Program-made: the position numbers and the translations under genes | Notes under the pieces: model-generated | What the model was told of the DNA's origin: nothing | The model's database searches: none | What the model saw: only the letters and a program-made list of their open reading frames with translations | In this document: positions 19,690-45,326 of the stretch, one piece after another | Numbering within the stretch: position 1 is the stretch's first letter | How the letters are laid out: each line of letters starts with the position of its first letter | From: Ignavibacteriota bacterium | GTDB taxonomy: Bacteria > Bacteroidota > Ignavibacteria > UBA10030 | Direction: 5' to 3' | Length of the DNA stretch: 64,000 bases | Assembly (NCBI GenBank): GCA_963701295.1 | Contig: OY969585.1 | Span: 2,912,001-2,976,000, forward strand

Positions 19690-19781
19690 GTTCTTTGTGC
19701 GTAGTTAATTAGTACTTCGTTCTTTGTGCCTCGGTCTTTGTGCTTCGTTCTTTGTGCTTAGTTTTTTGTACTTAGTTCTTT
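19690..19781 (+). repeat. Degenerate heptamer tandem array, about 13 units (GTTCTTT/GTGCTTC)
   Basis: gttcttt gtgcgta gttaatta gtacttc gttcttt gtgcctc ggtcttt gtgcttc gttcttt gtgctta gtttttt gtactta gttcttt. Confidence 0.9.
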
Positions 19782-20137
19782 TTAATAAGTATTGGATAAA
19801 TCCACCAATAAGATTTTTAATATCTTTTGCTTCTGTGAATAATTCATCAAATTCATTTTGAGTAATATATCGGCAATCAACGACAACGTATAAGAGCGTT
19901 TGGACTTCGGAAGTTGATCTGTAAGCATAATTTACAGAAAAGGATAAAACTTTTCCTCGATCCCGAATCAAATCCCTCTGCAATATTTGCCATAATAGAA
20001 ACTGTTGCACGTTGAATCTGTTCTCTTAGTCCAAAATCTTTTGCGAAATCTCCTTTGGCTGTCAAGCCATATATTCGCGATGTCAGCTCACGAGCCTTTT
20101 TCCACGATTCAATATCTTCAAATCGTTCAATCTTCAA
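19705..20137 (-). pseudogene. Four-helix-bundle protein (23S rRNA IVP/Avd-like family), split by a frameshift near 19935
   Basis: ORF 19877-20137 gives the N-half (FEDIESWKKAREL...QIQRATVSIMANIAEGF); ORF 19705-20010 gives the C-half (NYAYRSTSEVQTLLY...LIGGFIQYL); removing one base of TTC TGTA AAT restores F-L-N. Confidence 0.85.
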
Positions 20138-20181
20138 TTTCTATCATTCTCTTATTTCCAACAGAACTAACCAACTCTGAA

Positions 20182-21222
20182 CTAGTATCCACGTTTCTTC
20201 ACTTTTTCAAAATCTGCATGTGCCATCATTTTCGCTAAGTCGCGAAATGTTGTCTTCGGCACCCACCCCAATTTATTTTTGGCTTTTGTTGCATCTCCCA
20301 TAAGCAATTCAACCTCTGTTGGACGATAATATCGAGGATCGACTTCTACGAATGTCTTGCCGTCTTTTTTCGATATTCCTATTTCCTGTTCCTTCTCGCC
20401 TTTCCACACCAAATCCATCTCTAATTCAGTAAACACTGTTTCGATAAATTCTTTCACAGAATGCGCCTCGCCGGTGGCAAGCACAAAATCCTCCGGTACA
20501 TTCTGCTGCAGCATACGCCACATCCCTTCACAATATTCCGGCGCATATCCCCAATCGCGTTTTGCGTGAAGATTTCCTATTGTAAGTTTTTCTTGCAAAC
20601 CAAGCTTGATTCTTGCAGCCGCAAGCGTAATCTTTCTCGTTACAAAGGTTTCACCGCGGCGGGGAGATTCATGATTAAAGAGGATACCATTACAGGCATA
20701 CAGCCCGTATGCTTCACGATAATTGATGATGATCCAGTACCCGTACAGCTTCGCTACACCATACGGACTGCGGGGATAAAATGGCGTTCGCTCTGTTTGC
20801 GGCACTTCCTGCGCTTTGCCGAACAATTCGCTTGTCGAAGCCTGATAAAACCGCGTGCGAACTCCCGTCTCCCGAATCGCATCCAAGAACCGCAGTGTCC
20901 CTACAGCATCCACCTCAGCCGTGTACTCAGGAACCTCAAATGAGACTTTCACATGGCTTTGCGCGGCAAGATTATAGATTTCCTCGGGTTCAACTTTTTC
21001 GAGGAGACGGTTGAGGTTGCTCGTATCCGTCACATCGCCATAATGCAGGAACATACGATCGCCGTATATTTTTGGATTATTGTAAAGATGATCGATACGG
21101 CCTGTGTTGAATGAACTGCTGCGTCGAATGATTCCGTGTACTTCATACCCTTTTTCAAGCAAGAGTTCCAAAAGATAGGAACCATCCTGGCCGGTGATAC
21201 CGGTAATGAGCGCTTTTTTCAT
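20182..21222 (-). CDS. gmd: GDP-mannose 4,6-dehydratase
   Basis: [57 protein letters not shown]. Confidence 0.98.
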
Positions 21223-21230
21223 AAAAATTA

Positions 21231-21314
21231 GTAAAGAGTGAATGGTGAATAGTAAATGGTGAATAGTAAATAGTAAATGGTAAATAGTAAATAGTGAATA
21301 GTAAATAGTGAATT
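21231..21314 (+). repeat. Heptamer tandem array, 12 units GTRAATR
   Basis: gtaaaga gtgaatg gtgaata gtaaatg gtgaata gtaaata gtaaatg gtaaata gtaaata gtgaata gtaaata gtgaatt. Confidence 0.95.
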
Positions 21315-21344
21315 GTTCATGATATCTGATTAAAAGTAAAAAAA

Positions 21345-21706
21345 TCAGTCTCGAATAGATTTACTCAAACCGCTGAGTAGTTTCTGAATCTCTATCAGAT
21401 GAACTTCAATCCTTTCGTACTGTGCTTTATCAAAATAATTCATATTCAGGCATATCTCTACCTGCGTATCAATCTCACTAAGAGAACCTTGTGCAACATT
21501 AAGGAAATACAATTTCTCTTTTTTCGATTTTCGTGTAAGTCCTTCTGCTATATTTGAAGGAACTGATACGGCAGCTCGCTTCAACTGCGACTTTAAACCA
21601 AACTCTTCATCCCGTGGAAATGTCTTTGTTTCTTCATAAATCAATGTGACCAATGCAATACTTTTCTTCCATGCTTCCAGCTTTTTGTGCGCCTTTCGTT
21701 GATCAC
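21345..21706 (-). CDS. Four-helix-bundle protein (IVP/Avd-like); homology extends upstream of the TTG at 21653 but the natural start appears frameshifted
   Basis: In-frame '[55 protein letters not shown]'; the nearest GTG (21704-21706) is out of frame by one base. Confidence 0.8.
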
Positions 21707-21716
21707 AATTACTTTC

Positions 21717-21772
21717 TTTTCTCTGTTCCCTGTTTCCTCATTACTCTTCACCGTTTACTCTTTATCGGTTAC
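21717..21772 (-). repeat. Heptamer array, about 8 units, inverted relative to 21231-21314
   Basis: Plus strand tgttccc tgtttcc tcattac tcttcac cgtttac tctttat cggttac; overlaps the stop codon at 21769. Confidence 0.75.
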
Positions 21773-22734
21773 TTATTTTTCTTCTTTAATTTTACTTGCG
21801 CTTCCACCCATGGATAGGTCAGTTTAATCCCATCTTCAAGATATACCTTCGCTTTCCAGCCAAGTGAGAATATCCGGTCATTTGAGAAATTACGCGATTG
21901 AACTCCGACCGGGCCCTTGACATGCTTGATAATGATTTTCTTTTCTGCGACCTTCGCGACTGTATTGGCGAGCTCATCAACCGTTACATACTGCGGGCAT
22001 CCGATATTCACAGCTCCCCTCAAATCCGAATGCATCAAGAGATAAATACCATCCACCATATCGCTTACGTAGGTATAAGAACGAACTGCTGTGCCATCTC
22101 CCCAGACTTCAATTGTGCCGCCATTTTCGGCTTCCGCCACTTTGCGAGACATTGCAGCGGGAGCTTTTTCCCGTCCGCCCGTCCAGGTGCCTTCCGGGCC
22201 GTAGCAATTTTGAAACCTCGCAATCCTTACTTGCATTCCATACCGGCGCTCATACGCCATGGCAATACGCTCAGAATAAAGTTTCTCCCACCCGTATTCG
22301 TTATCGGGATGCGCAGGAATTGCCTGATCTTCCGACATCTCAGGCTCGCCCGGTTTCATATCGCGATAGACACAGACAGACGAGGAAAAGAAATAGCGAG
22401 GTACGCCCATTCTTGCCGCGAGATCCGTCATATAAATATTCACAAGCGCGCTATTGTGCATGATCTCGGTTTCAGCGGAATGAATAAAGCCCATTCCACC
22501 CATATCTGCAGCAAGTTGATATACTTCATCGAATGTACCGCCATCGACCGTAAGCGCTGTACGACAATTGTCTTCAATCCTTAGATCCAGCAAGAGAAAT
22601 TCATCCGCCGCCTTCGGCGACCATTCGTGCGGCTTGATATCGACGCTGCGAACCCAGTAGCCTTCTTTTTTGAGTTTCTTTACAAGATGACAGCCAATAA
22701 AACCTCCTGCACCGCATACTAAAGCTTTTTTCAT
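21769..22734 (-). CDS. NAD-dependent epimerase, GDP-mannose 3,5-epimerase-like
   Basis: GAGGFIG, QLAADMGGMGFIHS, SSSVCVY, YGWEKL, GGREKAPAA, IEVWGDG: motifs characteristic of the GME subfamily. Confidence 0.85.
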   Translation of the reverse strand: MKKALVCGAGGFIGCHLVKKLKKEGYWVRSVDIKPHEWSPKAADEFLLLDLRIEDNCRTALTVDGGTFDEVYQLAADMGGMGFIHSAETEIMHNSALVNIYMTDLAARMGVPRYFFSSSVCVYRDMKPGEPEMSEDQAIPAHPDNEYGWEKLYSERIAMAYERRYGMQVRIARFQNCYGPEGTWTGGREKAPAAMSRKVAEAENGGTIEVWGDGTAVRSYTYVSDMVDGIYLLMHSDLRGAVNIGCPQYVTVDELANTVAKVAEKKIIIKHVKGPVGVQSRNFSNDRIFSLGWKAKVYLEDGIKLTYPWVEAQVKLKKKNK

Positions 22735-22737
22735 GAT

Positions 22738-22810
22738 GTTATCAGTTAAGAGTTATGAGTGAATAGTAAATTTGTTAGATAGTTATTTTGTTCTTAGTTG
22801 TTAGTTAAAG
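22738..22810 (+). repeat. Heptamer array, about 10 units (GTTANNA)
   Basis: gttatca gttaaga gttatga gtgaata gtaaatt ... gttctta gttgtta gttaaag. Confidence 0.75.
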
Positions 22811-22997
22811 ACATATTTTATTAACCGATGGTATGAAGAAAACCCGAATTTTTATATCAGAGTAAGAAATCATTCAATGCACTTCCCCTTTTTCCCCTTC
22901 TTAACTAAGGAGGGGATATGGAGTAGTTGAAATTTTTGATTGGTGCATTTTCTATTGTAACTTCTTGTGCGGTTTTTACCTTTCTACTTGCTAAATC

Positions 22998-23067
22998 TTC
23001 TTACTTATCACGTATTACCTATCACTCTTCACCGTTCACTCTTCATCGTTTACTCTTCACTCTTTAC
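22998..23067 (-). repeat. Heptamer array, 10 units, inverted relative to 22738-22810
   Basis: Plus strand ttcttac ttatcac gtattac ctatcac tcttcac cgttcac tcttcat cgtttac tcttcac tctttac; overlaps the ugd stop. Confidence 0.88.
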
Positions 23068-24370
23068 TGCTCTTTCTTCCAATTCCATAATAGGTAAACC
23101 CGGCATCCTGTACTTCCTTGGGATCGTAAATATTTCTTCCGTCAAACATAACCGGCGTCTTCATAATGGACTTCATGTAAAGCATATCCGGTTTACGGAA
23201 TTCATTCCATTCCGTCACGACAATCAGTGCGTCTGCATTGTTCAGTGCGGCGTATGCCGTCTTACAAAACTGCACACGAGCACCAAACACTTTCTTTGCA
23301 TGAGGCATCGCAACCGGGTCATGGGCTTTTATGGTCACCCCCTCTTTCAATAAGCTTGATATGATCACCATGGAAGGAGCTTCACGAATATCGTCCGTCT
23401 GAGGCTTGAATGCAATTCCCCAAATCGCAACAGTTTTTCCTTTGAGTTTCCCTGCGAAATGTCTTTTAAGCTTTGCGATCAGCATTTTCTTCTGGTCTTC
23501 ATTGATACGGTCTACCGCATCGAGAATGCGCAATGGATGCGCATTGTTCGCCGATGTTTTGATCAACGCCTTAACATCTTTTGGGAAACATGAACCGCCG
23601 TAGCCGATACCTGCAAATAAAAAATTCTTGCCGATGCGCGGGTCGCTGCCAATTCCTTTTCGTATCCATTCGATGTCTGCGCCGACTTTCTCGCAGAGGT
23701 TTGCAAGATCGTTCATAAATGTGATCTTCGTCGCCAGAAATGAATTTGCTGCATACTTTGTCAGCTCTGCGCTTTTTTCATCCATGACGATGATGGGATT
23801 GCCGGTACGGACAAAAGGTTCGTACAGTTCTCTCATGACTTGTGCGGTTTTCTTATCGCTAGTCCCGATAATGATGCGATCCGGTCTCAAGGAGTCTTGA
23901 AGCGCCGACCCCTCTTTGAAGAATTCCGGATTGGACACGACTTGTACGTCGTATTTCCCGCGGTTCTCAAATATTTGCCTCATTTTTTCTACTGTGCCGA
24001 CCGGAACTGTACTTTTGCTGACAACGATTTTTGCTTCATTCAAATAACCTGCTATCCCCTTTGCTACTTCCATCACATGTGTAAGGTCAGCAGAACCGTT
24101 TTCCGATTGCGGTGTTGGAAGACAGAGAAAAATAACTTGAGACTTTTCGACTGCAAATTTTAAATTCGTCGAAAATACCAAGCGCCCGTCTTTTACGTTT
24201 CGCTTTACGACCTCATCCAGGCCCGGTTCATAGATCGGAATAATTCCTTTTTTAAGGTTGTCGATCTTTTTTTTGTCGATATCCATGCAAATGACGTTGT
24301 TGCCTGTGTCTGCAAAACAAGCGCCTTGCACAATGCCTACATAACCGGTTCCAATAATAGATATCTTCAT
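23057..24370 (-). CDS. ugd: UDP-glucose 6-dehydrogenase
   Basis: IIGTGYVG, KSTVPVGT, NPEF, SAELTKYAANSFLA, GYGGSCFPKD, FKPQTDDIREAP. Confidence 0.96.
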   Translation of the reverse strand: MKISIIGTGYVGIVQGACFADTGNNVICMDIDKKKIDNLKKGIIPIYEPGLDEVVKRNVKDGRLVFSTNLKFAVEKSQVIFLCLPTPQSENGSADLTHVMEVAKGIAGYLNEAKIVVSKSTVPVGTVEKMRQIFENRGKYDVQVVSNPEFFKEGSALQDSLRPDRIIIGTSDKKTAQVMRELYEPFVRTGNPIIVMDEKSAELTKYAANSFLATKITFMNDLANLCEKVGADIEWIRKGIGSDPRIGKNFLFAGIGYGGSCFPKDVKALIKTSANNAHPLRILDAVDRINEDQKKMLIAKLKRHFAGKLKGKTVAIWGIAFKPQTDDIREAPSMVIISSLLKEGVTIKAHDPVAMPHAKKVFGARVQFCKTAYAALNNADALIVVTEWNEFRKPDMLYMKSIMKTPVMFDGRNIYDPKEVQDAGFTYYGIGRKSSKE

Positions 24371-24378
24371 AATGACTT

Positions 24379-24441
24379 GTAAATAGTTAAGAGTTTATGT
24401 TGAATGGTTAATAGTAAACAGCAAACAGTGAATAGCAATCA
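24379..24441 (+). repeat. Heptamer array, 9 units
   Basis: gtaaata gttaaga gtttatg ttgaatg gttaata gtaaaca gcaaaca gtgaata gcaatca. Confidence 0.85.
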
Positions 24442-24540
24442 TTAAAAAGTGGTCATCAAGGCATACGTTAACACTCCAAAAAAACCATAAGATTAATAAT
24501 TTTACGGATTAATTGACAGAAAGTAAAGGATGAGAAGACG

Positions 24541-24713
24541 ATAAACAGTGAATAGTGAAAGGTAAAGAGTTAAAATTGAATAGTGAATAGTAAAGAGTGA
24601 AGGGTTAAGAGGAAAGAGTGATGAGAGTTCGTAGTGCGTAGTTAACAGAGTAAAACAACGAAGAGTAAACAGTAAATGGTGATAAGTGATAGGTGAGATG
24701 TGAATTGTGAAGA
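24541..24713 (+). repeat. Long mosaic heptamer array, about 23 units
   Basis: gtgaata gtgaaag gtaaaga ... gttcgta gtgcgta ... gtaaaca gtaaatg gtgataa gtgatag gtgagat gtgaatt gtgaaga. Confidence 0.9.
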
Positions 24714-24718
24714 GATAC

Positions 24719-26164
24719 TCAACACGCACCTTTCCCGAAGAGAACAACGGGGATGGTTGCAAAGATAATCTCCAGATCGAAAATGAGGGATTGATTCTCA
24801 ATGTAATAGAGATCGAGCCAGATCATGTCATGAAATCCGAGAGCGCTTCTTCCTGATATCTGCCACAATCCGGTAATTCCCGGTTTTACTTTTTCACGAA
24901 CCTTAATGGTGTTCCAATAATCTTTCGACTCTTTGAGTTTTTCTAAATCGAAAACAGGCAAGGGTCTCGGACCGACAATACTCATTTCTCCTCTGATGAC
25001 ATTGATCAGCTGCGGTAGTTCGTCAATACTGAGTTTTCGGATAATCTTGCCGACCTTTGTCATGCGCGGGTCATTCTTAATTTTAAAAAGCGCTCCGTTC
25101 GATTCATTTTTTTCAAACAAGGATTCTTTGAGCGCATCCGCGTCTTTCACCATACTGCGAAATTTATAAAAGTAAAACATTTCACCGCCGCGAATTGCCG
25201 CACGATGCTGCTTAAAAAATATCGGCATCCCTGACTCTATCAATATTGCCGCTGCCGTAACAAGAAGTATCGGACTGAGAAGAATCAATGCAGTGACAGC
25301 AAAGACAATATCAAACAACCGCTTGAGCACATATTTAGCGGTGTCAATGCGTTTTCGTTCCTGGGAGTAGATAGTAATCCCTGCCATATCGTACACACGT
25401 GACAACGACATGAGAGAACCGGAATTCTCCGACAGTACTTTAAGTTTTATCTGTTTCTTTTGGCATATTTTCAGAATACCAGCATACCCGTTTGTCATTG
25501 TCTCAATGGAAGGAACAAAGACCCTGTCAATTTCAAATTTCTCAACGAGATGTTGAAATTCGGATAATGGATACGTTGGGATAAGAGATCCGTTTATTCT
25601 TATATGCCGGGGAGTTCTCTGAGGTTGTTGATGAACAACCATGCCTTGAATGACATATCCCAGCTCGGGGAATTTCTTAAACCGCCGTACAACATTCATA
25701 CCTTCCTGATCGTATCCTGCAAGGAGAACATGATGATTTCCATACCCCCGCTGCTGCATAGAACGAACAAAGATATTTAAAAGCACTCTGCCAAGAACGA
25801 AGAGTACGGGCAGGAGAAGAAAAAAAATAATTGTGAACCTTCTTGGAAAATCGCTGTATTGAAAGAGAAAAAGAACCGAAAAAAGAATGAGCACAGAATA
25901 GAGATATGCCTTACTCGCTAAAAAATAGAGACGCTTGGTATTGCTGTGCAATGTAACCCGATACACTCCGATGATCAGCGCTGAAAAGATCATCGACAAT
26001 CCAAGAAATGCGCTGAATTGAAGAAACACGGTTGTGGAATAATAGGATAGATTGGGAAAAAATCCCCGTACGATATAAGCAAGAATCGCGCTTGTTACAA
26101 GAGCGAGAGTATCCGTAAGAAGAGCAATGAAAATTACTATGGTTCGCCAGTTGCGTTTCAGCAT
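24719..26164 (-). CDS. Priming polyprenyl-phosphate sugar-1-phosphate transferase (WcaJ/WbaP family)
   Basis: N-terminal TMs, 'KRLFDIV', 'YKFRSM', 'DPRMTKVG', 'DELPQLINV..GEMSIVGPRP', 'KPGITGLWQ'. Confidence 0.95.
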   Translation of the reverse strand: MLKRNWRTIVIFIALLTDTLALVTSAILAYIVRGFFPNLSYYSTTVFLQFSAFLGLSMIFSALIIGVYRVTLHSNTKRLYFLASKAYLYSVLILFSVLFLFQYSDFPRRFTIIFFLLLPVLFVLGRVLLNIFVRSMQQRGYGNHHVLLAGYDQEGMNVVRRFKKFPELGYVIQGMVVHQQPQRTPRHIRINGSLIPTYPLSEFQHLVEKFEIDRVFVPSIETMTNGYAGILKICQKKQIKLKVLSENSGSLMSLSRVYDMAGITIYSQERKRIDTAKYVLKRLFDIVFAVTALILLSPILLVTAAAILIESGMPIFFKQHRAAIRGGEMFYFYKFRSMVKDADALKESLFEKNESNGALFKIKNDPRMTKVGKIIRKLSIDELPQLINVIRGEMSIVGPRPLPVFDLEKLKESKDYWNTIKVREKVKPGITGLWQISGRSALGFHDMIWLDLYYIENQSLIFDLEIIFATIPVVLFGKGAC

Positions 26165-26427
26165 GTATAATTGGTTTTTCTATTCAATGATCCCCTTGCC
26201 TCCGAGGAAATATGCACTATTCCTTATATAAATTTGGAATAATTATACCAGAGATGCAAGAGAGAACTGTTCTCCCAGACCAGAATGTGCGCTGAATCAA
26301 CTTAAAACTAAGCAGAAGCCATACTGGGTGCTGTCGGGACTTATTTGCCCGCTTGACGAGCCCTTCGCAGTCTGATAACCAGCCTTATCGCGGGGGGGCG
26401 CTGTATTTTTTGTCATCAGATTATGCC

Positions 26428-26866
26428 GACATTGCGAATGACTGCAAGGAGCGCGACAGTCTTACACCCGTCATTGCGAATGTTTTCCAATGAAGCAATC
26501 TCTCTTTTCCCTATGGTATCAGATTGCTTCACCGCTTTCAGCGGTTCGCAATGACAATATGAAAGTCATTGCAAACGACTTCTAGGAGCACGGCAATCCC
26601 TCTTTTCCTCTTTCTCCGTCATTGCGAACAGTTTCATCGTGAAGCAATCTCTCCTTTTCTCAACGTTATCAGATTGCCTCAGTCGTTTCACTCCTTCGCA
26701 ATGACATAATAGGACGGTCAGTAGACTACGTGTCATTGTGAGCGACCGTAAAGAGTGCGGCAGTCTCTCTCATTCAGTCATTGCGATCCCGACTTGTCGG
26801 GAGAAGCAATCTCGTTTTTTCCCTTAGTAAGTAGGTTTCTTCGTCTTTCGGGATCTTCGCAATGAC
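26428..26866. repeat. REP-like palindromic repeat cluster (GTCATTGCGA...GAAGCAATC / GATTGCTTC...TCGCAATGAC)
   Basis: Forward half-sites at 26428, 26470, 26565, 26618, 26732, 26777; inverted ones ending at 26555, 26705, 26866. Confidence 0.92.
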
Positions 26867-26874
26867 TTGGCTCT

Positions 26875-27192
26875 TTATTCTAATTCAAGAGGAAGTATTT
26901 CTCCATCTTGATACAAATCTTTCCATTCGGGATTCACATTATCAATAAGATCAAGTTTCTTCTGTCTTGAACCTGCTTTGATTTGTTTCTCGCGTGAAAT
27001 GGCATCATAAGCAGTTTCAAATATTTCATAATACACGAGTTTGGTAATATTGTACCGACTTGTAAATCCTTTTATCTGTTTCTCTTTGTGTTTCCATACT
27101 CTTCGTGCAAGATCATTTGTCATGCCGGTATACAGTACAGTATTGTTCTTATTGGTCATTATGTATGCAAAGTATTGTCGTTCTTCGTACAT
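26875..27192 (-). CDS. Stand-alone GIY-YIG nuclease family protein
   Basis: 'YFAYIM...LYTGMTNDLARRVWKHK...FTSRYNITKLVYYE...AISREKQIK...NPEWKDL'. Confidence 0.93.
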   Translation of the reverse strand: MYEERQYFAYIMTNKNNTVLYTGMTNDLARRVWKHKEKQIKGFTSRYNITKLVYYEIFETAYDAISREKQIKAGSRQKKLDLIDNVNPEWKDLYQDGEILPLELE

Positions 27193-27202
27193 AAGTTATG
27201 TC

Positions 27203-27603
27203 GTCATTGCACTCTCACACGTCATTGCGAACGTAGTGAAGCAATCCTTCTTCTATTCAGTCACTGCGAACATTTTCATCGTGAAGCAATCTCTCCTTTT
27301 CTCGACGTTATCAGATTGCTTCGTCACCTGCCCCTTCGGGGCTTCGTTCCTCGCAATGACAATATGAAAGTCATTGCGAGTGACTGCAAGAAGCGCGACA
27401 GTCTTACACCCGTCATTGCGAACGCAGTGAAGCAATCCTTCTTCTATTCAGTCATTGCGAACAGTTTCCTCGTGAAGCAATCTCTCCTTTTCTCAACGTT
27501 ATCAGATTGCTTCACCGCTTTCAGCGGTTCGCAATGACATAATAGGATGGTCAGCAGACTACGTGTCATTGCGAGTCCCAACTAAGCGGGACGAAGCAAT
27601 CCC
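27203..27603. repeat. REP-like palindromic repeat cluster, same family
   Basis: Forward half-sites at 27203, 27221, 27260, 27370, 27412, 27451, 27565; inverted ones ending at 27360, 27538. Confidence 0.92.
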
Positions 27604-27701
27604 GTTTTTTCTTTCTTAAGAGAATAGCGTCGCTGTTTCACTCATCGCGTTGATTTGGCGCTTTATTTGAACGGATACACACTGGACAATTACAACAAAC
27701 A

Positions 27702-28838: not shown

Positions 28839-28848
28839 AATTACATTG

Positions 28849-29985: not shown

Positions 29986-30083
29986 TATTATACTTAACTC
30001 TTATAAAGATTTACATTTATATTCTTGAATATTTTAGCCTAAACCTAAGATATTATGATGTTTAAAATGCAAACTTATGCTGT

Positions 30084-30803: not shown

Positions 30804-30864
30804 ATCCGTTCTCTTAATATGTAGTGAAGTGAAAACAAAAATAGAAGTGAGTTAGTCCAAAGTG

Positions 30865-31689: not shown

Positions 31690-31712
31690 TATTGATTATG
31701 ACTTAGCCAATA

Positions 31713-32555: not shown

Positions 32556-32652
32556 TCATCTTATTCTTGAATTAATATCAAATTATTTATTTAACCAGAT
32601 TATAAATGCGTTCTAATTATTTGACTGCGCAAAGACTAAGATATTTAAGCAA

Positions 32653-33843: not shown

Positions 33844-33894
33844 CTTCAGCCATATTGTTTCGTAAGCAGTGTGGAATAACTATTTATCATTTTG

Positions 33895-34617: not shown

Positions 34618-34874
34618 TTATTTCCTCCACTTTATGATACCCAATTTCATAAGACATGTGTCGTAATAGCATTTTATAGAACGGGATAATTCTGTCGAAC
34701 CATATTCTCATATGCAATTTTGAATAGTGCTTTTGCAATTATATCTTCCGAAAAAAACTCTGATGCAAGTTTTCTCAACAACACTATGGTTTCCTCTCTT
34801 TTATGATTTTAAGTTTGATTTTGTCATCTATATACAACAAGATTAATTCGACATCATCTTTTCGAAGTTTGCGA

Positions 34875-37366: not shown

Positions 37367-38382
37367 TTTGTTGATCTCTTAAATAAGCTCATTATTCTGT
37401 GCCCAATGGAAAGTAAAAGATTTATTTCAGAAATAATAAATACTTTATATGAGGTACCGTAACGTTTTCTCCAACTAAACCACTGAATAAAAAGGGTAAT
37501 TGGTGAAATGATATTTGCGTGGTTTGACCAATAATTTGAACAACTTGAAATCAATAATTTATCGAAGTAAGTATTTAAATCAGTATCGATGTCGATAAGT
37601 AATATTTTATCTAACTCGTTACGCACTTCTAGTGTTTCAATAAACTTTTTAAACCAAATGGAATATTCATAACAGGATTTTATGGCTAACGACAAAGGAT
37701 ATTCCGATGTCAGGTTTTTACCAAAATTTCTTTTCTCTAATAATATATTTTTCACATAGCCAATTCCACTTCTTTGTGCAAGCATGAACCATGTCGCATA
37801 GTCTGATGACCATGCGAGAGGAAAATTCACAAAACCACCAATTCTTTGCAAAGATTTAGTTCGACATAAAAACTCTGAAATTGATAATATCCTGCTGCTT
37901 CGGAAACCATGCCATACAAAATCAATTCCAGATTCCCAGTATGGACAACTTGATGAAATGACTACTTTTCCATTTTTATCGATTGTTGTTAATCTACAGT
38001 GCACAATATTGGTATCAGGGAGCCCTAGAAGACACTCTAGAAGTTCAGCGGCAAATGTTCGCATATATACATCATCATCAGACGCCAAAATAAAATATTG
38101 TCCTTTTGCATATTCAAGAACTTTATTCCAATTCTTAACAGGAGAATATTTGCCTATATTTACTTTATTTTCATAATAACGAATCCGTGGATCATTGTAT
38201 TTCTTTACTGTTTCTTTTACATCTTCAGGAGAAGCGTCATTCACAATAACTAATTCAATATTTTTATATGTCTGATTTAATATACTTTCTATTGCATCTT
38301 CTAAACATTCATTTTTATAGGCAGGCATTCCAAATGTAATTAACTCCGCATGCTTTTTTTCTTTTATCGAATTATCTTTCAT
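37363..38382 (-). CDS. Glycosyltransferase family 2
   Basis: GMPAYK, VNDASP, LASDDD. Confidence 0.92.
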   Translation of the reverse strand: MKDNSIKEKKHAELITFGMPAYKNECLEDAIESILNQTYKNIELVIVNDASPEDVKETVKKYNDPRIRYYENKVNIGKYSPVKNWNKVLEYAKGQYFILASDDDVYMRTFAAELLECLLGLPDTNIVHCRLTTIDKNGKVVISSSCPYWESGIDFVWHGFRSSRILSISEFLCRTKSLQRIGGFVNFPLAWSSDYATWFMLAQRSGIGYVKNILLEKRNFGKNLTSEYPLSLAIKSCYEYSIWFKKFIETLEVRNELDKILLIDIDTDLNTYFDKLLISSCSNYWSNHANIISPITLFIQWFSWRKRYGTSYKVFIISEINLLLSIGHRIMSLFKRSTN

Positions 38383-38406
38383 TGTAATACACTCTCATTC
38401 TTAATT

Positions 38407-39072
38407 TTATTTGTTTGAAGAATGCTGTTCTAATTTGGCAACTACCGCAAATTGAAGAAATCGCATATCTCTAATACTATTTAAAAGAAGAATATTGCTT
38501 ACTTTAAATTTTATTGATTCAGTTGCATTGATACCACTTAATATTAAGATTTTAAATCCTGACTCCCTAAATAACCGAATGATTGATTTCTCAGTATAAA
38601 ATCGATAGTGTGTTTTATCAAGAATACCTGAATCCCTATATTGAAAATCCTTTCTAATAACTATATCAACAATATTATTCCAGAACCTAAAATTTGGGAT
38701 TGAAAGAACAACTATGGATTCGTTGTTTCCCAAATATCGTTTAATATTTTCAAGTGTATCCCAAGGATCCGACATATGTTCTAAAACATCATTTAATATA
38801 ATACAGTCAAAATACTTTTTGGGCAATTTTATTTTTGAATCGAACATTGCATTCTGCACGCTAAACAATCTAGTCGAAGCAATTTTAGCTGCATTCTTGT
38901 TTGGTTCAATTCCCCAGACTTCGGCATCTTGTCGTTTTATCAATTGCAATCCAAATAGCCCTTCACTACAGCCAATTTCAAGTATCTTTTTGCAATATCG
39001 AGGAACAAAATCCAACATTTCAGAACGATGACATTTAAAATATGAAGTCTCATTTTTCAAATTATTTTCCAT
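38407..39072 (-). CDS. Class I SAM-dependent methyltransferase
   Basis: ILEIGCSEG, NDVLEHM.DPW, SIPN, GILDKTH. Confidence 0.9.
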   Translation of the reverse strand: MENNLKNETSYFKCHRSEMLDFVPRYCKKILEIGCSEGLFGLQLIKRQDAEVWGIEPNKNAAKIASTRLFSVQNAMFDSKIKLPKKYFDCIILNDVLEHMSDPWDTLENIKRYLGNNESIVVLSIPNFRFWNNIVDIVIRKDFQYRDSGILDKTHYRFYTEKSIIRLFRESGFKILILSGINATESIKFKVSNILLLNSIRDMRFLQFAVVAKLEQHSSNK

Positions 39073-39092
39073 GATTATGTTATTTTTACTTT

Positions 39093-40523
39093 TTAACGAT
39101 TAAGATCTATAGTTTTTAATGCAATATTTACTATTTGCTTAATTTCCGAACTAAATATTAATCTCAAGACAAAGAGTACTGTAATAAGTACTCCTACCCG
39201 AATTACGAAAGAACGGTCAAGCAGAGAATATGATAATGTCGATAAAATAATATATGAGAAGAATACTTTAAACTCTTTTTTCCACCTAATCATATCAGGT
39301 AAAATATTTTTTATAAAATGCCAATGGATTGTAAAACCTACTATACCAGAAAGAAATAGTGCAATAGATAATCCTGTAGCACCATAATGTGAACCTATAA
39401 AGGAAAATGTTCCTATAAGTAATGCATTCACAAGAGAGAGACGCACCATAGTATGCTCTCTATTCATTGCAACAAATATCAATCCAACCAACCCGAACAT
39501 CATAGATTGTATAGCGACCCATAATTGAGCTGATAGGGGAACCACTGCTAATATATATTTATCTCCGAATAATAGGACTACAAATTCATGTCCTAACAAA
39601 CTGAGAATAGTTGCGATGAGAATTCCGCTAAAAGCTAATATCGTAAACATCTTTTCAATATTCTGTTTGAAAGATTCAATATCGTTTATTGCAGAGACTG
39701 AAAGTAATGGAAATATCGCCGGATAAATATTCACAAACATCATTTGAATTGGTTGTGTTAATCTATTCCCAATTCCATAATATGCTACCTGGTTCATACC
39801 TGAAAAAGCTGCAAGAAACATTAAAGGAATTTGTGATACAGGTAGAGACAATAAATTCGTTCCATAAATCGGCATGCTTTGTCTAAGAAGTTCACTTGAA
39901 CTTATCATATATCCGGCAGAACATGATCCGGATTCGAAATATTGTTTTCTCCATTCCCACCAGAAGTAAAATAAACTTTTAACTATTTGTACACCAACAA
40001 AAGTGTAGAATACAACTTCCAACGTCATTAAGGCTGGGGTAATTGTAAACACAAGTGCAAACCAGAATAAAGAACTAATAACAGACAACCAAGCCGATAT
40101 TTGCATTTGACCAATACTAAACGCAAATGTCTCAGTAACATCCCAGCTCATTTGTACTAATAGATATATGAAGATTGCGAAAAGGAATATAATCGATTGT
40201 ATCTCATGTAAATGAACATATCCAACTAATATACAACCTGCAATCATTGTAGCTAAGAAGATTATCTTTGAAGAATGTCGTGCAATAAGTGGAAGAGCAA
40301 AAGGATTTCTAGCTATTTCGCGGATGGAGATATTTCGAAGCCCTAAATTGGCAAGAACCTGAGCAATTGATACCGCAGTAATGATATAAATGTAGCGACC
40401 GTAGTCTGCTGGTGATAATATACGTGCGATTCTGACTAAGCAAATAAAATTCAGCGATGTTTGAATGAAACTTGCTGTAGTTAAAAGCGACCAATTTCGA
40501 ATAATTCTTGATTTTATTTTCAA
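39093..40523 (-). CDS. wzx: Second Wzx-type flippase
   Basis: 'IARILSPADYG', 'LGLRNISIREIAR', many TM helices. Confidence 0.85.
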   Translation of the reverse strand: MKIKSRIIRNWSLLTTASFIQTSLNFICLVRIARILSPADYGRYIYIITAVSIAQVLANLGLRNISIREIARNPFALPLIARHSSKIIFLATMIAGCILVGYVHLHEIQSIIFLFAIFIYLLVQMSWDVTETFAFSIGQMQISAWLSVISSLFWFALVFTITPALMTLEVVFYTFVGVQIVKSLFYFWWEWRKQYFESGSCSAGYMISSSELLRQSMPIYGTNLLSLPVSQIPLMFLAAFSGMNQVAYYGIGNRLTQPIQMMFVNIYPAIFPLLSVSAINDIESFKQNIEKMFTILAFSGILIATILSLLGHEFVVLLFGDKYILAVVPLSAQLWVAIQSMMFGLVGLIFVAMNREHTMVRLSLVNALLIGTFSFIGSHYGATGLSIALFLSGIVGFTIHWHFIKNILPDMIRWKKEFKVFFSYIILSTLSYSLLDRSFVIRVGVLITVLFVLRLIFSSEIKQIVNIALKTIDLNR

Positions 40524-40805
40524 AATATTCAGCTAGGATGTTCACTTATTTCTGTACGAAGGTAGCGATTGAATTCTCGAATTGTTAAAAATAATTGCAT
40601 TTTGATATCTATATCATTGTCACTAATTTATTCTATAATATATCTTTAGATATAACGTAAATTCTGGATAATGATTTTGTGAATATTCATTAACAATAAC
40701 ACTGCCATCTAATGTGGTACCGTACATAGTTTTTGTATTGCCCTTTGAAATACTATTCCCCGATTTTATATCCTTAATCTCGTGCATCTATAATTCATGT
40801 ACTTC

Positions 40806-41762
40806 TTATTTCTTTTTACCGACGAAGTAGAGATCATCCCAAAGTATATTTTCTCCTTCGAATATCATCGAATTTGCTTGAATCCTTTTATAAACCACCT
40901 CAAAGTTTTCTTGTAGATATTTTTCAATGACTTTTCTATCTACTCTTAACGGATGCGCTGCATCATAGCTGTTTTTCGCGGTGTTTCGAATTTGTTCATG
41001 GTCATAATATTTATCTTCAAAAACAAAATATCCATCCTTATGAATTATCTTAAGTATGTTTTGAAACACTAATTCTACATCATAACAATGTTCTATAACA
41101 TTAATCATGGTTATTAAATCATAGCGATTGCTCAAGGGAATTGTTTCTGCTGCACTATTTATAAGTTCCTTTATTTTAGTTTTCCTTGAGAGTATGCGCA
41201 AATATAATCGAAATGCGAAAGGAAATATTTTTCTTATGACTTTTCCTAAAAGTGGAACATATTCAGAGAAAAGATATTTATCACTATAAAAACAAAAGGG
41301 ATGTTTTAGATACTCATAAATTAACGGATCTAAAAGTGAACAATTTGTCACTTTGCATAGACCAGCTATAATTCTTGAATTTGTAAATGGTCCACATCCT
41401 ATTTCCAACATAGAACGAAAAGTCCTATTTTTAATTACTTTGTATTTATCGAATTGTTCAAAATGATAGTCATTTCTATCGTTTGCGCTTCTAATTCCTT
41501 TTTTTAGCCAATGATTCTTTTCACATTCCTGCGCTTTTTCCCATCTTTCTGCCGTAACCTTGACAATTCCTTTGTCTTTACTTAAATATTTAGCATCGTT
41601 TTCTTTGCGCAGAGCTTCTATCGCTTTCTCACCAGTAAAAACATTTATTTCTTTATCAATAAAAACCGGTTTCGCCATAGATATTATTTTTATAATACTT
41701 TGCTCGGTATAAAACAATCCCACATTAGATAATAACGCAACAAGTGAATTTAAGTTTGTCAC
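40806..41762 (-). CDS. Class I SAM-dependent methyltransferase (start probably near 41678, MAKP)
   Basis: MLEIGCGPF, INVIEHC. Confidence 0.8.
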   Translation of the reverse strand: MTNLNSLVALLSNVGLFYTEQSIIKIISMAKPVFIDKEINVFTGEKAIEALRKENDAKYLSKDKGIVKVTAERWEKAQECEKNHWLKKGIRSANDRNDYHFEQFDKYKVIKNRTFRSMLEIGCGPFTNSRIIAGLCKVTNCSLLDPLIYEYLKHPFCFYSDKYLFSEYVPLLGKVIRKIFPFAFRLYLRILSRKTKIKELINSAAETIPLSNRYDLITMINVIEHCYDVELVFQNILKIIHKDGYFVFEDKYYDHEQIRNTAKNSYDAAHPLRVDRKVIEKYLQENFEVVYKRIQANSMIFEGENILWDDLYFVGKKK

Positions 41763-41858
41763 ATATTCTATTACAATGCAGCGTTCATTAAAATTACATT
41801 TACATAAAGTAGCTACTAATTTCTAAATGAATAACATTAACTGAGACTTCCATCTATC

Positions 41859-41900
41859 GGTTTACCGTTCACTTTCTATTGTTCATTGTTTACTCTTCAT
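41859..41900 (-). repeat. Heptamer array, 6 units
   Basis: Plus strand ggtttac cgttcac tttctat tgttcat tgtttac tcttcat. Confidence 0.7.
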
Positions 41901-41903
41901 CTT

Positions 41904-42089
41904 TTTAATTGTCTCACCTGATTATACTAAGCAATAATATTTTTCCCCTATTTATATTCAATAATACGAGTAGCTTCCAGAACCAACAAATGCCAGCATC
42001 ATCGATACCAGGACAATAATCGATCTTTTGGCATTTCTTTTTTTGCAGCTGCACGTCCGTTATCAAAAACATTTATGATCTTTGTCATG
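41904..42089 (-). pseudogene. Decayed duplicate of the wzz 3' end
   Basis: Reads TKIINVFDNGRAAAKKEMPK/SIIVLVSMMLAFVGSGSY/RIIEYK*GKNI versus wzz TPIISVMDYARAAASKERPKRRVIVLVSMMLAFIGSCGYRIIEQKYGKNI; frameshifts and stops. Confidence 0.88.
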
Positions 42090-42154
42090 AAGTCTATGAG
42101 ACAAAATGTATGGAAATTCTATGTGTTTTCAAAAGGATGCCGCGTAAATAATAA

Positions 42155-42217
42155 GTGAAGAGGAAATAGTGAAGAGAAAACAGTGAAGAGTAAATGGAAA
42201 AGAGTAAAGAGTGAAAA
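42155..42217 (+). repeat. Heptamer array, 9 units (GTGAAGA)
   Basis: gtgaaga ggaaata gtgaaga gaaaaca gtgaaga gtaaatg gaaaaga gtaaaga gtgaaaa. Confidence 0.85.
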
Positions 42218-42343
42218 AAGCTGATATTTTCACAGTGGTAGTCGGTAATGCTTTCTCGTGCTTCATTCCTTTCAGTCGAATAGAGGCTGCTGTCTGCAAG
42301 GAAAGTTTTCTTTCGTTCTACTATTCTAAAATAATTGTTATGA

Positions 42344-42475
42344 CTATAAAGTTTGGATAGGAAGTGCAATAAGGTTCTTCTCAAAAGCGACAGTCTCTTG
42401 ACCTGAATAAAGCACGATTCCTCAAATAAACTTACTCCCTCGTTCCTCCGAGAGTAACCGCATAGCTTTGAATGA
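42344..42475 (-). pseudogene. C-terminal remnant of an AAA+/DUF4143-type ATPase
   Basis: Translates SFKAMRLLSEERGSKFI*GIVLYSGQETVAFEKNLIALPIQTL*, resembling (from memory) the family C-terminus F.GL..L....G..F.RG.VLY.G.....F...L.A.P...LW. Confidence 0.6.
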
Positions 42476-42649
42476 CGCTCCATCATGTATTGGACGATTA
42501 TCGTCCATCATACGGTGGAATATACGGTATAGGGTTTATGTAATTTTAATCTTCTGCTTTAAATTTACATCGTAAAAGAATCATATTCATTTAGCCATCG
42601 AATGAATAAACTCTCCACTACGACCAAAAACCTATCCCTGACGGACTAA

Positions 42650-43084
42650 TCATCCATCGTCCTTTTTGTCTAATTGATAAAACGCTAAGATTGCTGTATA
42701 GAAAACCTCCAAATCCTGCAAACGATCACTGAGTATATTTTTTAAAATATCGAGATTGATGGCCTGGTATTCATGCACAACAATATTTCGGAACCCTGCC
42801 ATATGTTCCAAACGGATAGAGAGATCGCCGCTCATAATTCCTTGAAGATGGAGTATATGAAAGTGCTCCTTTAAATCTCGTGGTAATCCGAACCCACCTG
42901 CAGCAATCACATGTGCAGCAAGATCCAGCGCAGCTTGTATTGCACGCTGTAAATTTAAAATAAAAATATCCTGCTTGTCGATATTTTCTAATGCCGCAGG
43001 TTCCAAACCGGTTACATCTCTGATCCGCTGCAGGCAGCGCTGGATAATGGCAACTTTGCCGTACACGATATCCGCATCAAGCAT
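42650..43084 (-). CDS. HEPN (DUF86) RNase toxin, HepT-like
   Basis: 'LNLQRAIQAALDLAAH', 'GFRNIVVHEY' (RX4HXY). Confidence 0.9.
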   Translation of the reverse strand: MLDADIVYGKVAIIQRCLQRIRDVTGLEPAALENIDKQDIFILNLQRAIQAALDLAAHVIAAGGFGLPRDLKEHFHILHLQGIMSGDLSIRLEHMAGFRNIVVHEYQAINLDILKNILSDRLQDLEVFYTAILAFYQLDKKDDG

Positions 43085-43499
43085 AGATTCGCCCATGTAA
43101 GATGCCCTCTTCTATCGGCTTCCGGATTTGCTTGAGGTCACAATAAGCACCAAGTGTTTGTACGATAAACTTCTGAAGACTCCGTTCATCTCTCACAAAA
43201 AGAAGCTTTCCGAAGCGTAAAACCTGCATCTGGATGATTGGATCTGCCTTCTGCAGCAAAAGCAAATCAATCTCTTCTATTTCCACGCATTCGCGAATAG
43301 ATTGCAAAAGTCGCAACTGCGTTTTGTATACACCGATTTCGGCTTGTGCCGGTAAGAGCACAGCAACATCAATGTCTTCAGGCGCATCGTATGTTAAAAA
43401 AGACCCGAAAACGTACAATGCAAGAATTTCTCTATGGCGTTCTCCAAATACCTTGAGACGGCTATATACTTCCTGTTTTTGTCCATCATTAAAAACCAT
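43077..43499 (-). CDS. Minimal nucleotidyltransferase antitoxin, MntA-like
   Basis: 'LYVFGSF...EDIDVAV', 'EIDLLLL', 'VLRFGKLLF'; overlaps the HEPN start. Confidence 0.88.
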   Translation of the reverse strand: MVFNDGQKQEVYSRLKVFGERHREILALYVFGSFLTYDAPEDIDVAVLLPAQAEIGVYKTQLRLLQSIRECVEIEEIDLLLLQKADPIIQMQVLRFGKLLFVRDERSLQKFIVQTLGAYCDLKQIRKPIEEGILHGRIYA

Positions 43500-43643
43500 A
43501 CTCTATTCGCCACATCCATTGAACATCGCTTGAACAACAGAGAAAATATAATCAAATTTACAGAAAGATTCATACAAAAACTTATAGACACAAAGCGATC
43601 ACCCCTGTCCTTCGCAAGTTCCTTCTATGACTATTGGGAGAGC

Positions 43644-43692
43644 GAATGATGAATTGCGATTGAAGAAACGAGAATGTTGAATAAAGAACTGC
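43644..43692 (+). repeat. Heptamer array of a different type, 7 units GAANNNN
   Basis: gaatgat gaattgc gattgaa gaaacga gaatgtt gaataaa gaactgc. Confidence 0.65.
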
Positions 43693-43724
43693 GCAATTTC
43701 TTAGACATTGACGGTTAGATAAAC

Positions 43725-43782
43725 TCCCAACTACGAACTAATAAACTATGCACAAAGCACTACGCACTAAAACACTAAGAAC
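43725..43782 (-). repeat. Heptamer array, about 8 units, beginning at the wzz stop
   Basis: Plus strand tcccaac tacgaac taataaac tatgcac aaagcac tacgcac taaaacac taagaac. Confidence 0.8.
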
Positions 43783-44804
43783 TATAATCTTCTAAATATT
43801 CCATACCATCCTTGAATATTCTTCCCATACTTTTGCTCAATAATACGATATCCGCAAGAACCAATAAACGCCAGCATCATCGATACGAGAACAATGACTC
43901 TTCGTTTTGGCCTTTCTTTACTTGCAGCCGCACGGGCATAATCCATGACACTAATGATGGGAGTAGTCCGAATCTCTTCGATCTTGACAAGTTCATATTG
44001 CTTCTTTAATTCCACATACATCGTAGAATTGATTTGCATTTCCCGCATCAGCCGCTCCTGATCGAGAAGCAGCTGCGGCGAGCCGCTGATCGATCTATTC
44101 TTTTCACGAAAATCCTTGAGTGCATTTTCCGCTTTTGAAAGGTCTTCCTTCACTTCCACCAGCCGCGCTTCGATCCATTTCCTCTGTTCCGAGGCATTGG
44201 TGTTTCTCTTTGTCCGGATAAATTTATCCGCTGCACGAATTGTGGTATTTAGGATGTCTGCCGATAACTGAGGCTCTGCTGTTTCAATGGACATCGTCAA
44301 CACCGCTGTTTTAAGATCCAGAGCAACATCCAATCCATTACGAAGATTCAGCAGTGCAACTTCATACTCCCGTTCTGGATTCTTTTCCTTAATCTTCCAG
44401 TATTGAATGAGGTCGACAGAATCAGGATATTCTTTCGTTTGGTACTTTGTAAGGATGACCGCTTTTAACACCGATTCGCTTTTCAGAATTATTGGATACA
44501 ATTTTACAATCGATCCTTCTCCGCCAACATTGACACCCGCCATAGCTGCAAGGTCCGTCAAGCCTCCGCCTAACGATCCAAGCTTAGATTTATCCGTATC
44601 CGGCAAGAGCACCGCTGTCGATTTGAAAGATTCCGGCAAGAGCAAACTAATAATTATTGCCAATACTGTTACGGCACCGGTAACAATTCCAATAAACTTT
44701 CTGGATTGCCACAGAAGCGAAAGGATATTCATCCAATCGATTCGGGATTCACCCTCCGTGAGTTGATTGGAAGATTCGTCGGTATTTTGAGATGGAGTTT
44801 TCAA
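43782..44804 (-). CDS. wzz: Wzz/GumC-type polysaccharide co-polymerase (chain-length determinant)
   Basis: Two terminal TMs, 'LLLPESFKSTAVLLP', coiled coil, 'VMDYARAAASKERPKRRVIV'; no kinase domain. Confidence 0.9.
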   Translation of the reverse strand: MKTPSQNTDESSNQLTEGESRIDWMNILSLLWQSRKFIGIVTGAVTVLAIIISLLLPESFKSTAVLLPDTDKSKLGSLGGGLTDLAAMAGVNVGGEGSIVKLYPIILKSESVLKAVILTKYQTKEYPDSVDLIQYWKIKEKNPEREYEVALLNLRNGLDVALDLKTAVLTMSIETAEPQLSADILNTTIRAADKFIRTKRNTNASEQRKWIEARLVEVKEDLSKAENALKDFREKNRSISGSPQLLLDQERLMREMQINSTMYVELKKQYELVKIEEIRTTPIISVMDYARAAASKERPKRRVIVLVSMMLAFIGSCGYRIIEQKYGKNIQGWYGIFRRL

Positions 44805-44805
44805 T

Positions 44806-44855
44806 GTTAATCAGTGGTTAGTTATATGTGATAAGTAATTGGTTATTAGTGATAA
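44806..44855 (+). repeat. Heptamer array, 7 units (GTGATAA)
   Basis: gttaatca gtggtta gttatat gtgataa gtaattg gttatta gtgataa. Confidence 0.8.
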
Positions 44856-44856
44856 A

Positions 44857-45228
44857 TTATAAGTCGTTTTTGCTAATGCTTCTGATAAGACCGCTTAAAA
44901 GCCGCTCCACTTCAGACAATCGTTCATTTGCAATGATATTTGTCTCCTCATGAATGAAATCCAATCTGTGAGATATTTCAATCTGCGCGTCAATTTCGCT
45001 GAGTGAACCTTGTGCCATATTTAAGAAATGAATTTTATCTTTTCTCGTTCTTCGCGTCAATCCTTCTGAAATATTAGAGGGAACAGAAACGGCTGCACGC
45101 CGCAGTTGAGACTTCAGTCCAAATTCTTCTTCGCGCGGAAATTGTTTTGTAATTTCATACAAGTACACGACAAGATCAATTGCCTTCGACCATAATTGTA
45201 ACTTCTTATGCGGTTTTTGCCTTTCCAC
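44857..45228 (-). CDS. Four-helix-bundle protein (23S rRNA IVP/Avd-like), intact
   Basis: '[48 protein letters not shown]...[18 protein letters not shown]'. Confidence 0.92.
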   Translation of the reverse strand: MERQKPHKKLQLWSKAIDLVVYLYEITKQFPREEEFGLKSQLRRAAVSVPSNISEGLTRRTRKDKIHFLNMAQGSLSEIDAQIEISHRLDFIHEETNIIANERLSEVERLLSGLIRSISKNDL

Positions 45229-45235
45229 TTAAATC

Positions 45236-45326
45236 TTCCTACTTATCATTTCTAACTTATCACCTATTACTTATCACTTATCACTTCTAACTTATCACTT
45301 CTTGCTTATCACCTATTACTTATCAT
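45236..45326 (-). repeat. Heptamer array, 13 units (TTATCAC), inverted relative to 44806-44855
   Basis: ttcctac ttatcat ttctaac ttatcac ctattac ttatcac ttatcac ttctaac ttatcac ttcttgc ttatcac ctattac ttatcat; overlaps the stop at 45323. Confidence 0.95.

Follow-up and report, generated by a model that had tools for sequence, protein, structure and literature searches.

The described systems closest to the element treated here are the intervening sequences (IVSs) with an open reading frame (ORF) that interrupt 23S rRNA in Coxiella and Leptospira. The element is a small cassette, in which a four-helix-bundle gene lies between inverted arrays of seven-base repeats, and it occurs at several gene junctions of a 64,000-nucleotide stretch of an Ignavibacteriota bacterium genome (contig OY969585.1, positions 2,912,001 to 2,976,000; hereafter the window). 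In Coxiella burnetii, the available text of PMC4990558 places tandem GACAGAT heptamers, variable in number, before the start of the S23p gene in the IVS of helix 45, and reports that RNase III cuts at the first repeat. As far as these accounts extend, IVSs and window cassettes have in common the protein family, terminal inverted repeats, heptamers upstream of the start codon and decay of the ORF, and GACAGAT phases as NNNNNAG, like the window units. They differ in that the window cassettes lie between protein-coding genes and not in rRNA, and in that their ends are long degenerate arms rather than the near-perfect 28-bp stem given for the IVS. In addition, the mismatches between the arms of such cassettes show no selection for an RNA stem.

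Seven-base repeats with a fixed relation to stops and starts have also been described. According to the parts of PMC4692102 at hand, GGGAATC (Xanthomonas) and GGGGAYT (Nostoc) are G-rich on the coding strand just after stops and on the non-coding strand just before starts, with many inverted pairs, which is the polarity of the window arrays. The supplement records, 6 nt beyond the bccP stop, a GGGAATC array that overlaps the XCC0516 start and has no inverted partner by the criteria of that paper; the available main text makes no mention of a four-helix gene, and it reads the repeats as G-quadruplexes, which the window words cannot form. The accessible sections of PMC4679880 describe TAACTGA repeats of Beggiatoaceae, Cyanobacteria and Bacteroidetes, with C-type heptamers (the reverse complement of the purine, G-type unit) just before start codons, like the C-type arms of the window, and one set in reverse orientation directly behind a stop. 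Participation in rearrangement is suggested, and these sections connect the repeats neither with four-helix genes nor with paired arms (the terms 'four helix', 'Avd' and 'IVS' do not occur in them). Four-helix genes are noted inside cas loci in the portion seen of PMC3936711, and only as a table entry in that of PMC5524665. No paper joining the four-helix family to heptamer arms in protein-coding operons was found, in a search that reached few subscription papers. The stop/start polarity of the Xanthomonas and Beggiatoaceae repeats and the heptamers of the Coxiella 23S IVS are thus already published; a link to the four-helix gene family was not found there.

MITEs (miniature transposable elements with inverted repeats) and repetitive extragenic palindromes with their RAYT proteins (REP/RAYT) offer a further comparison, being gene-less inverted-repeat derivatives of a gene-bearing element that insert after stops, sometimes in frame. 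The window cassette departs from them, as its central gene is no transposase, its ends are periodic degenerate arrays and no target duplication is seen. Finally, Avd, the accessory protein of diversity-generating retroelements (DGRs), is pentameric and associated with nucleic acid, according to the available parts of PMC6182149 and PMC10053308. Its structure (PDB 4DWL) has the fold of the window protein, which falls below the NCBIfam cut-off for Avd, and the genome has neither a reverse transcriptase (RT) nor the template and variable repeats (TR/VR) of a DGR. The cassette is built like an ORF-bearing IVS, but generalised to operons, and is neither a 23S IVS by location, nor a DGR, nor an insertion sequence. 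The best explanation of the arrays, which stands at about an even chance of being right, is that they are the two inverted arms of a small portable four-helix cassette that acts at the DNA level, and that these arms are recognised by its own predicted ring-forming protein.

Heptamer arrays and four-helix genes

A lag-7 scan of the window returns exactly 13 arrays of 7-bp period, located between 19672 and 45328, against 0-2 arrays for each of the other lags (4, 5, 8, 10, 11 and 13) and a mean of 1.05 (maximum 4) lag-7 arrays in 100 composition-preserving block shuffles. A first description, made from the letters alone (the sequence-only reading), had counted about 13, and both the places it gave for them and the four words it quoted are correct. 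Genome-wide, gene-less arrays are frequent, and period 7 prevails both at a score of at least 14 (129 arrays, against 37-71 for other lags) and at a score of at least 25 (18 against 0-1). The unit, formerly called GU-phased, is better written NNNNN(A/G)G, with (A/G)G conserved every 7 nt across the arms, and NNNNNAA in one large clade.

The window is a surface-glycan cluster on the minus strand. On the mRNA strand, G-type (purine) arrays start at or overlap the stops of the SLBB gene (45323), wzz (43782), ugd (23057), GME (21769) and gmd (20182), the last being a short arm outside the set of 13; C-type arrays terminate 2-10 nt upstream of the starts of wzz, ugd, GME, gmd and fcl. GME is a label of the sequence-only reading, for which profile scans indicate the epimerase family only. 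The consistent stop-to-start grammar proposed for these arrays therefore stands at five stops and five starts, but not at the wcaJ-like gene, whose stop (24719) precedes a C-type array and so breaks the rule; a G arm is present there in three relatives (L451, L452 and L459) and missing in the window. The arrays at 41860 and 42145 bracket a decayed second wzz and so follow the rule too. Around 2803 ORFs, the 16 periodic windows after stops include 11 of G-type and 3 of C-type, and the 11 before starts include 7 of C-type and 3 of G-type, one exception in each set being a four-helix gene's own end. Stops in all three frames are enriched in upstream arms (44% against 26% in shuffled ones) and in downstream arms (32% against 13%); since both arms show it, a specific insulation signal was rejected. 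The window gave no match in Rfam, only chance-level results in promoter and terminator scans, and nothing in a PF13366 search.

Genes of the PF05635/TIGR02436 family occupy three window junctions (4HBa, 4HBb and 4HBc). The scores for PF05635 are 123 bits for 4HBa and 127 bits for 4HBb (cut-off 33.8), that for TIGR02436 is 117 bits (cut-off 24), and 4HBc matches in two pieces. The arrays had been said to bracket passenger genes, and this applies to four-helix genes or their remains; the sole other passenger is a MntA-HepT pair, the arms of which are unmatched (z -1.4). Two window copies are intact, one is frameshifted and one survives as a 46-bp remnant, and gene-less arms occur as well; a decay series is seen that runs from intact cassette through frameshifted copy, remnant and gene-less arms to single arm. 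The genome holds eight four-helix loci, and in all of them the gene is seen between inverted arms; each lies between protein-coding frames, none being inside a 23S rRNA gene. Since five of the eight are outside the glycan cluster, a specificity for glycan operons, the setting in which the sequence-only reading described the arrays, is rejected.

The nearest named relatives of the window protein come from metagenome-assembled genomes of Ignavibacteria and Bacteroidota. Its structure model (predicted local distance difference test 94.6) matches Xcc0516 (2GSC) with a template-modelling (TM) score of 0.91 and a root-mean-square deviation of 0.8, as well as BT_0352, and Avd with a TM score of 0.80 at 13% identity; the Avd profile NF033474 gives 39-43 bits, under its cut-off of 80. 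By likeness to the pentameric Xcc0516 and Avd, the protein is predicted to form a ring. Purifying selection acts on it (median ratio of non-synonymous to synonymous substitution rates 0.11 in 38 close pairs), though frameshifted and remnant copies are common. No transposase was detected among the 53 window frames scanned, and the genome contains one weak partial match to Y1_Tnp, elsewhere than the window, and no match to the reverse transcriptase domain RVT_1, which is present in five of 16 genomes of the genus. RNase III (rnc) is encoded.

Relationship between the two arms

At the eight genome loci, compared over fixed 70-nt windows, duplexes between cognate arms average -26.4 kcal/mol and those between other arms -17.1 kcal/mol. 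Only 1 of 40320 permutations is as good as the cognate pairing, and the cognate partner ranks first in seven of eight rows, the frameshifted copy being last. Within the window, matching is strong for the SLBB/wzz pair (z -5.7) and weak for GME/gmd (z -1.1), ugd/GME (z -1.5), wzz/42145 (z -1.4) and gmd/fcl (z +0.8). The earlier claim that paired arms use matching variants is consequently upheld across the genome and the survey below, and at SLBB/wzz, but not at gmd/fcl. The wzz G arm and the fcl C arm also match at long range (z -2.3), for which a word of 4HBc type common to both is the better reading.

For a wider view, 418 sequences were reduced to 291 full-length genes with flanks and these to 210 loci below 85% identity. 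Both arms are present in 174 of them, and in 22 of 27 viral loci; units recur every 7 bases in 162 loci, every 8 in 36 and every 6 in six, these six belonging to a single protein clade. Arm alignments exceed the threshold in 152 of 210 cognate and 42 of 838 non-cognate comparisons, after 50 of 90 and 20 of 534 in a first set of loci. The IVS-like cassette of arms and four-helix gene envisaged in the sequence-only reading is supported. An upstream stop is co-directional in 156 of 181 loci, and the array starts within -20 to +15 nt of it in 90 of 127 (before the stop in 49); ATGs lie within -10 to +25 nt of array ends in 93 of 127. The longest perfect inverted match between arms has a median of only 10 nt. 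The order of the units is nevertheless mirrored, as the real arms did better than arms with shuffled units in 64 of 99 loci and worse in 34 (p 1e-5), and also beat the best-word non-cognate arm (p 0.0025).

The word is related to the protein as well, with word similarity climbing from 0.34 to 0.62 as protein identity increases. A residue-to-base code was sought in 153 period-7 loci, where the first pass was dominated by deep clades. Within a 107-locus clade, and over a baseline of similarity, two combinations (residue 106 and base 6, residue 112 and base 5) outdid 40 of 40 block permutations in one setting, the top column shifting with the settings; independent pairs numbered 1-6 and were not significant. 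The co-travel of word and protein, together with the selection on the protein, suggests that each protein recognises its own word.

With respect to the level at which the arms are related, the sequence-only reading proposed that they pair in the transcript and loop out, excise or release the passenger, which keeps the upstream stop beside the downstream start. Consistent with this are the positions of stops and ATGs relative to the arrays and the presence of RNase III, which cuts the Coxiella IVS at the first heptamer in the available account (PMC4990558). Such a stem can also close. At three four-helix junctions the arms close the minimum-free-energy fold, and at four junctions the expected arm-arm pairs (37.9, 33.4, 14.6 and 26.6) exceed the means of shuffled arms (23.4, 26.0, 5.2 and 15.4), the real count being reached by 1, 2, 2 and 0 of 20 shuffles. 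Whole-junction folds, in contrast, do not differ significantly from shuffles (z -1.26, -0.07 and -0.73).

The pattern of mismatches speaks against selection for this pairing. Stems selected as RNA tolerate G·U and not A·C, yet the 985 arm mismatches include 186 of G·U type and 184 of A·C type, with 52 loci each way; tRNA acceptor stems, a control counted by position in a different alignment from that of the arms, show 15 and 0. Sense duplexes are no better than antisense ones (47 of 90 loci), and many arms are unpaired or unmatched, with the short perfect matches given above. After RNase III has cut an IVS, the ends are not known to be ligated, so that excision could not join stop to start, and the heptamer arrays found in frame inside uvrA and mutS (below) fit insertion better than excision. 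Selection of the arms for pairing in the transcript is accordingly considered unlikely. A mirrored order without strand bias argues instead for a relation of the arms on DNA, and points to a common origin or to correction between them, a mechanism known from quasi-palindromes; a DNA-level cassette fits better than loop-out or excision of mRNA.

Junctions in relatives and features of the window

The same junctions in related genomes are patchily occupied, and filled and empty states can be compared directly, as the sequence-only reading anticipated. Among the genus rows with both genes, to which the comparison was confined, gmd-fcl is filled in 4 of 14 and empty in 10, nine of the empty ones consisting of the stop, one base and the start position, and a 16-row gmd+fcl tree requires four changes of occupancy. 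GME-gmd has bare G and C arms in L172-L174, and ugd-GME is filled, bare or overlapping in congeners. Of 30 wzz loci fetched, 17 were examined, and five have a four-helix gene after SLBB, of type a in three, type b in one and type c in one, each with its own word; the rest comprise four short spacers, three bare arms or remnants, one long plain spacer and four loci without SLBB. One cassette type thus replaces another at the SLBB-wzz junction, and each word accompanies its protein type from one junction to another. The length of the arms differs greatly among congeners, and some arms are layered, their outer and inner words being of different types (the window ugd arm and L263).

Other junctions widen the range of states. 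A cassette with 8-base units occupies the junction between genes presumed to be gatB and tpiA (L112 and L201-L216) in 14 of 16 genus rows and in two order-level rows, and is absent from the 12 rows next after the genus; its array appears to supply the last codons and the stop of the upstream gene. Compact gene-less hairpins of the GATGAAAGATT...AATCT type fill a junction, which we take to be mreB-mreC, in L232, L233, L235, L236, L238 and L245, where the window's genome has a four-helix cassette. In-frame heptamer arrays also lie inside core genes, namely uvrA (L412:1160-1277) and mutS (L430:1242-1292 and 2565-2601), and the G-then-C insert of uvrA is not the same in word or length from one congener to the next, as read in 13 of 14 loci.

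The features of the window are listed in Table 1. The second wzz remnant (41906-42085) has its own C arm before it and G arm after it, which suggests that an older wzz was already present when the SLBB/wzz/MntA-HepT block was added in front of it. Three further observations concern the surrounding DNA. The gap between the wcaJ-like gene and ugd contains a non-repeat motif, CTTTACTTTCTGTCAATT (minus strand, approximately 24500-24540), which is conserved in many congeners and is possibly a regulatory site. The 114-bp stretch at 22822-22935, from the remnant to the GME C arm, is 74% identical to G000:C1:2179045-2179157 and represents another small dispersed element. Lastly, a small GIY-YIG gene (26875-27192) within 26420-27640 is flanked by structured palindromic repeat arrays on GTCATTGCGA/TCGCAATGAC words, unrelated to the heptamer arms.

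Table 1. Arms, four-helix genes and associated features of the window, from higher to lower positions
Feature	Position	Strand	Remark
G-type arm, TGATAAG/TAATAGG units, starts at SLBB stop; upstream arm of cassette a	45236..45326	-	
4HBa, intact four-helix-bundle gene (PF05635/TIGR02436), Xcc0516 fold	44857..45228	-	
C-type arm, CTTATCA units, ends at wzz start; downstream arm of cassette a	44806..44860	-	z -5.7 with its G arm
G-type arm after wzz stop; word TTCGTAG/TTCTTAG is that of 4HBc-type genes in relatives; no four-helix gene after it	43722..43784	-	
MntA-HepT toxin-antitoxin pair between unmatched G and C arms	42650..43499	-	
C-type arm, CTCTTCA units, upstream of decayed second wzz	42145..42217	-	
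Decayed 3' end of second wzz, 43% to wzz residues 281-340, three stops	41906..42085	-	
G-type arm, TGAAGAG/TAAACAA, after decayed wzz	41860..41899	-	
Mosaic C-type arrays directly after wcaJ-like stop; G arm of relatives missing	24544..24718	-	
C-type arm before ugd start	24379..24452	-	
Mosaic G-type arm overlapping ugd stop; TGAAGAG units outer, TGATAAG units inner	22995..23067	-	
46-bp remnant of 4HBa-type gene 5' end, 87% DNA identity to 4HBa 5' end	22954..22999	-	ugd-GME junction
C-type arm before GME-like start	22738..22810	-	
G-type arm overlapping GME-like stop; upstream arm of cassette b	21715..21772	-	
4HBb four-helix-bundle gene, frame open over entire profile, start codon uncertain	21345..21710	-	
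C-type arm, CTATTCA/CTATTTA, ends 7-9 nt before gmd start	21229..21316	-	
Short G-type arm that begins at the gmd stop and is longer in relatives; upstream arm of cassette c	20155..20184	-	
4HBc four-helix-bundle gene, two reading frames (frameshifted)	19783..20147	-	
C-type arm, GCACAAAGAAC/CTAAG units, ends 10 nt before fcl start	19690..19783	-	

Origin of the cassettes and significance

If the arrays are the arms of a portable cassette, this would be a mobile insert without a transposase, composed of a four-helix gene and 7-8-base repeats, in which each strand presents the NNNNN(A/G)G word at the 5' end of the element in the manner of transposon ends. The arms would be recognised on DNA by the four-helix protein, which is predicted to be ring-shaped, and the periodic binding lattice that the sequence-only reading offered as its alternative would thereby become part of this explanation. 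Arms would fold back in single-stranded DNA and be corrected against each other, and cassettes would enter at words that contain a stop codon, or by recombination into older arms, the latter giving rise to layered arms. Survival only where both reading frames are spared would produce the stop-to-start grammar, a geometry that would be due largely to insertion into tight junctions. Movement may depend on host recombination, which is a guess, and cassettes would decay to bare arms. A stem in RNA may form as a by-product, and would be the one that RNase III cuts when the cassette unit sits in 23S rRNA.

Several points weigh against this explanation. No mobilising enzyme was found in the scans given above, there are no recent identical copies (the eight in the genome are divergent), and comparison by eye of filled and empty gmd-fcl alleles makes no target-site duplication evident, although slippage could have erased one. 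Filled and empty patterns can also arise by ordinary recombination of operon segments, and the gatB-tpiA cassette is long-lived in the genus, which fits host benefit or slow movement. The 210 surveyed loci, drawn from many phyla, include related genomes and are not independent. As for self-recognition, independent pairs are too few to establish the residue-to-base code, and shared descent alone may explain why the word tracks the protein.

Apart from pairing in the transcript, three other explanations deserve consideration. The first supposes that the pentamer wraps the G-type array in the leader of its own mRNA, regulating its own or the downstream gene, with the C arm competing for the site. 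An (A/G)G conserved at 7-nt intervals is reminiscent of the NAG repeats to which TRAP binds, and the protein is under purifying selection. Avd, moreover, is a positively charged pentamer that acts on RNA in the parts available of PMC6182149, and a post-transcriptional role has been proposed for TAACTGA repeats in those of PMC4679880. Regulation of this kind nevertheless leaves unexplained the strand-symmetric mismatches, the turnover of filled and empty junctions, the frequent pseudogenes and the presence at unrelated operons of eight divergent paralogues that all have words of their own, and it is given little credence.

The second explanation is passive, the arrays being simple repeats expanded by slippage and inherited with a gene useful to the host, without self-recognition, and filled and empty junctions being the outcome of operon-segment recombination. 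The variable arm length among congeners, the many gene-less arrays of the genome and the stability of the gatB-tpiA cassette agree with it, but it accounts neither for arms 400 nt apart that have a locus-specific word, a period and a unit order in common, nor for the word that travels with the protein type between junctions, and it appears rather improbable. Least probable by its assessment is movement through RNA, in which an Avd-like pentamer would help a borrowed RT to prime on both host 3' ends of a break and to add repeats in a telomerase-like manner, the G word thus being written 5' to 3' on either strand: this would yield the observed polarity, and layered arms and the fold common with Avd, an RT partner in the available text of PMC6182149 and PMC10053308, agree with it, but the genome gives no RVT_1 match and only five of 16 genus genomes give one, the proteins score under the Avd cut-off, and no template repeat or RT lies beside any locus inspected.

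The portable cassette remains the preferred explanation, and a broader proposal may be derived from it, to be held more tentatively. Four-helix cassettes would be undescribed mobile elements without a transposase, both ends of which are read, through a 7-8-base word of its own, by the predicted ring protein. What is left after their decay would be the heptamer repeats with fixed polarity in Xanthomonas, cyanobacteria, Beggiatoaceae and Bacteroidota, among them in-frame inserts in core proteins, and the ORF-bearing IVSs of 23S rRNA would be copies that landed in rRNA.

The cassette is peculiar neither to this window nor to glycan genes. The finding joins three puzzles, namely the very common PF05635 family, which is of unknown function and has solved pentamer structures, the excess and polarity of bacterial 7-base repeats, and the ORF-bearing rRNA IVSs. 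Each four-helix protein gains a candidate ligand beside its own gene, so that binding specificity is directly testable with matched and mismatched pairs from this window, and direct tests also become possible of what PF05635 does and of where bacterial heptamer repeats come from. The cassettes suggest how junctions in surface-glycan operons may come to be turned over and how proteins such as UvrA may acquire low-complexity inserts; if true, a cassette origin would account for a class of bacterial repeats that is widespread and has long lacked an explanation.

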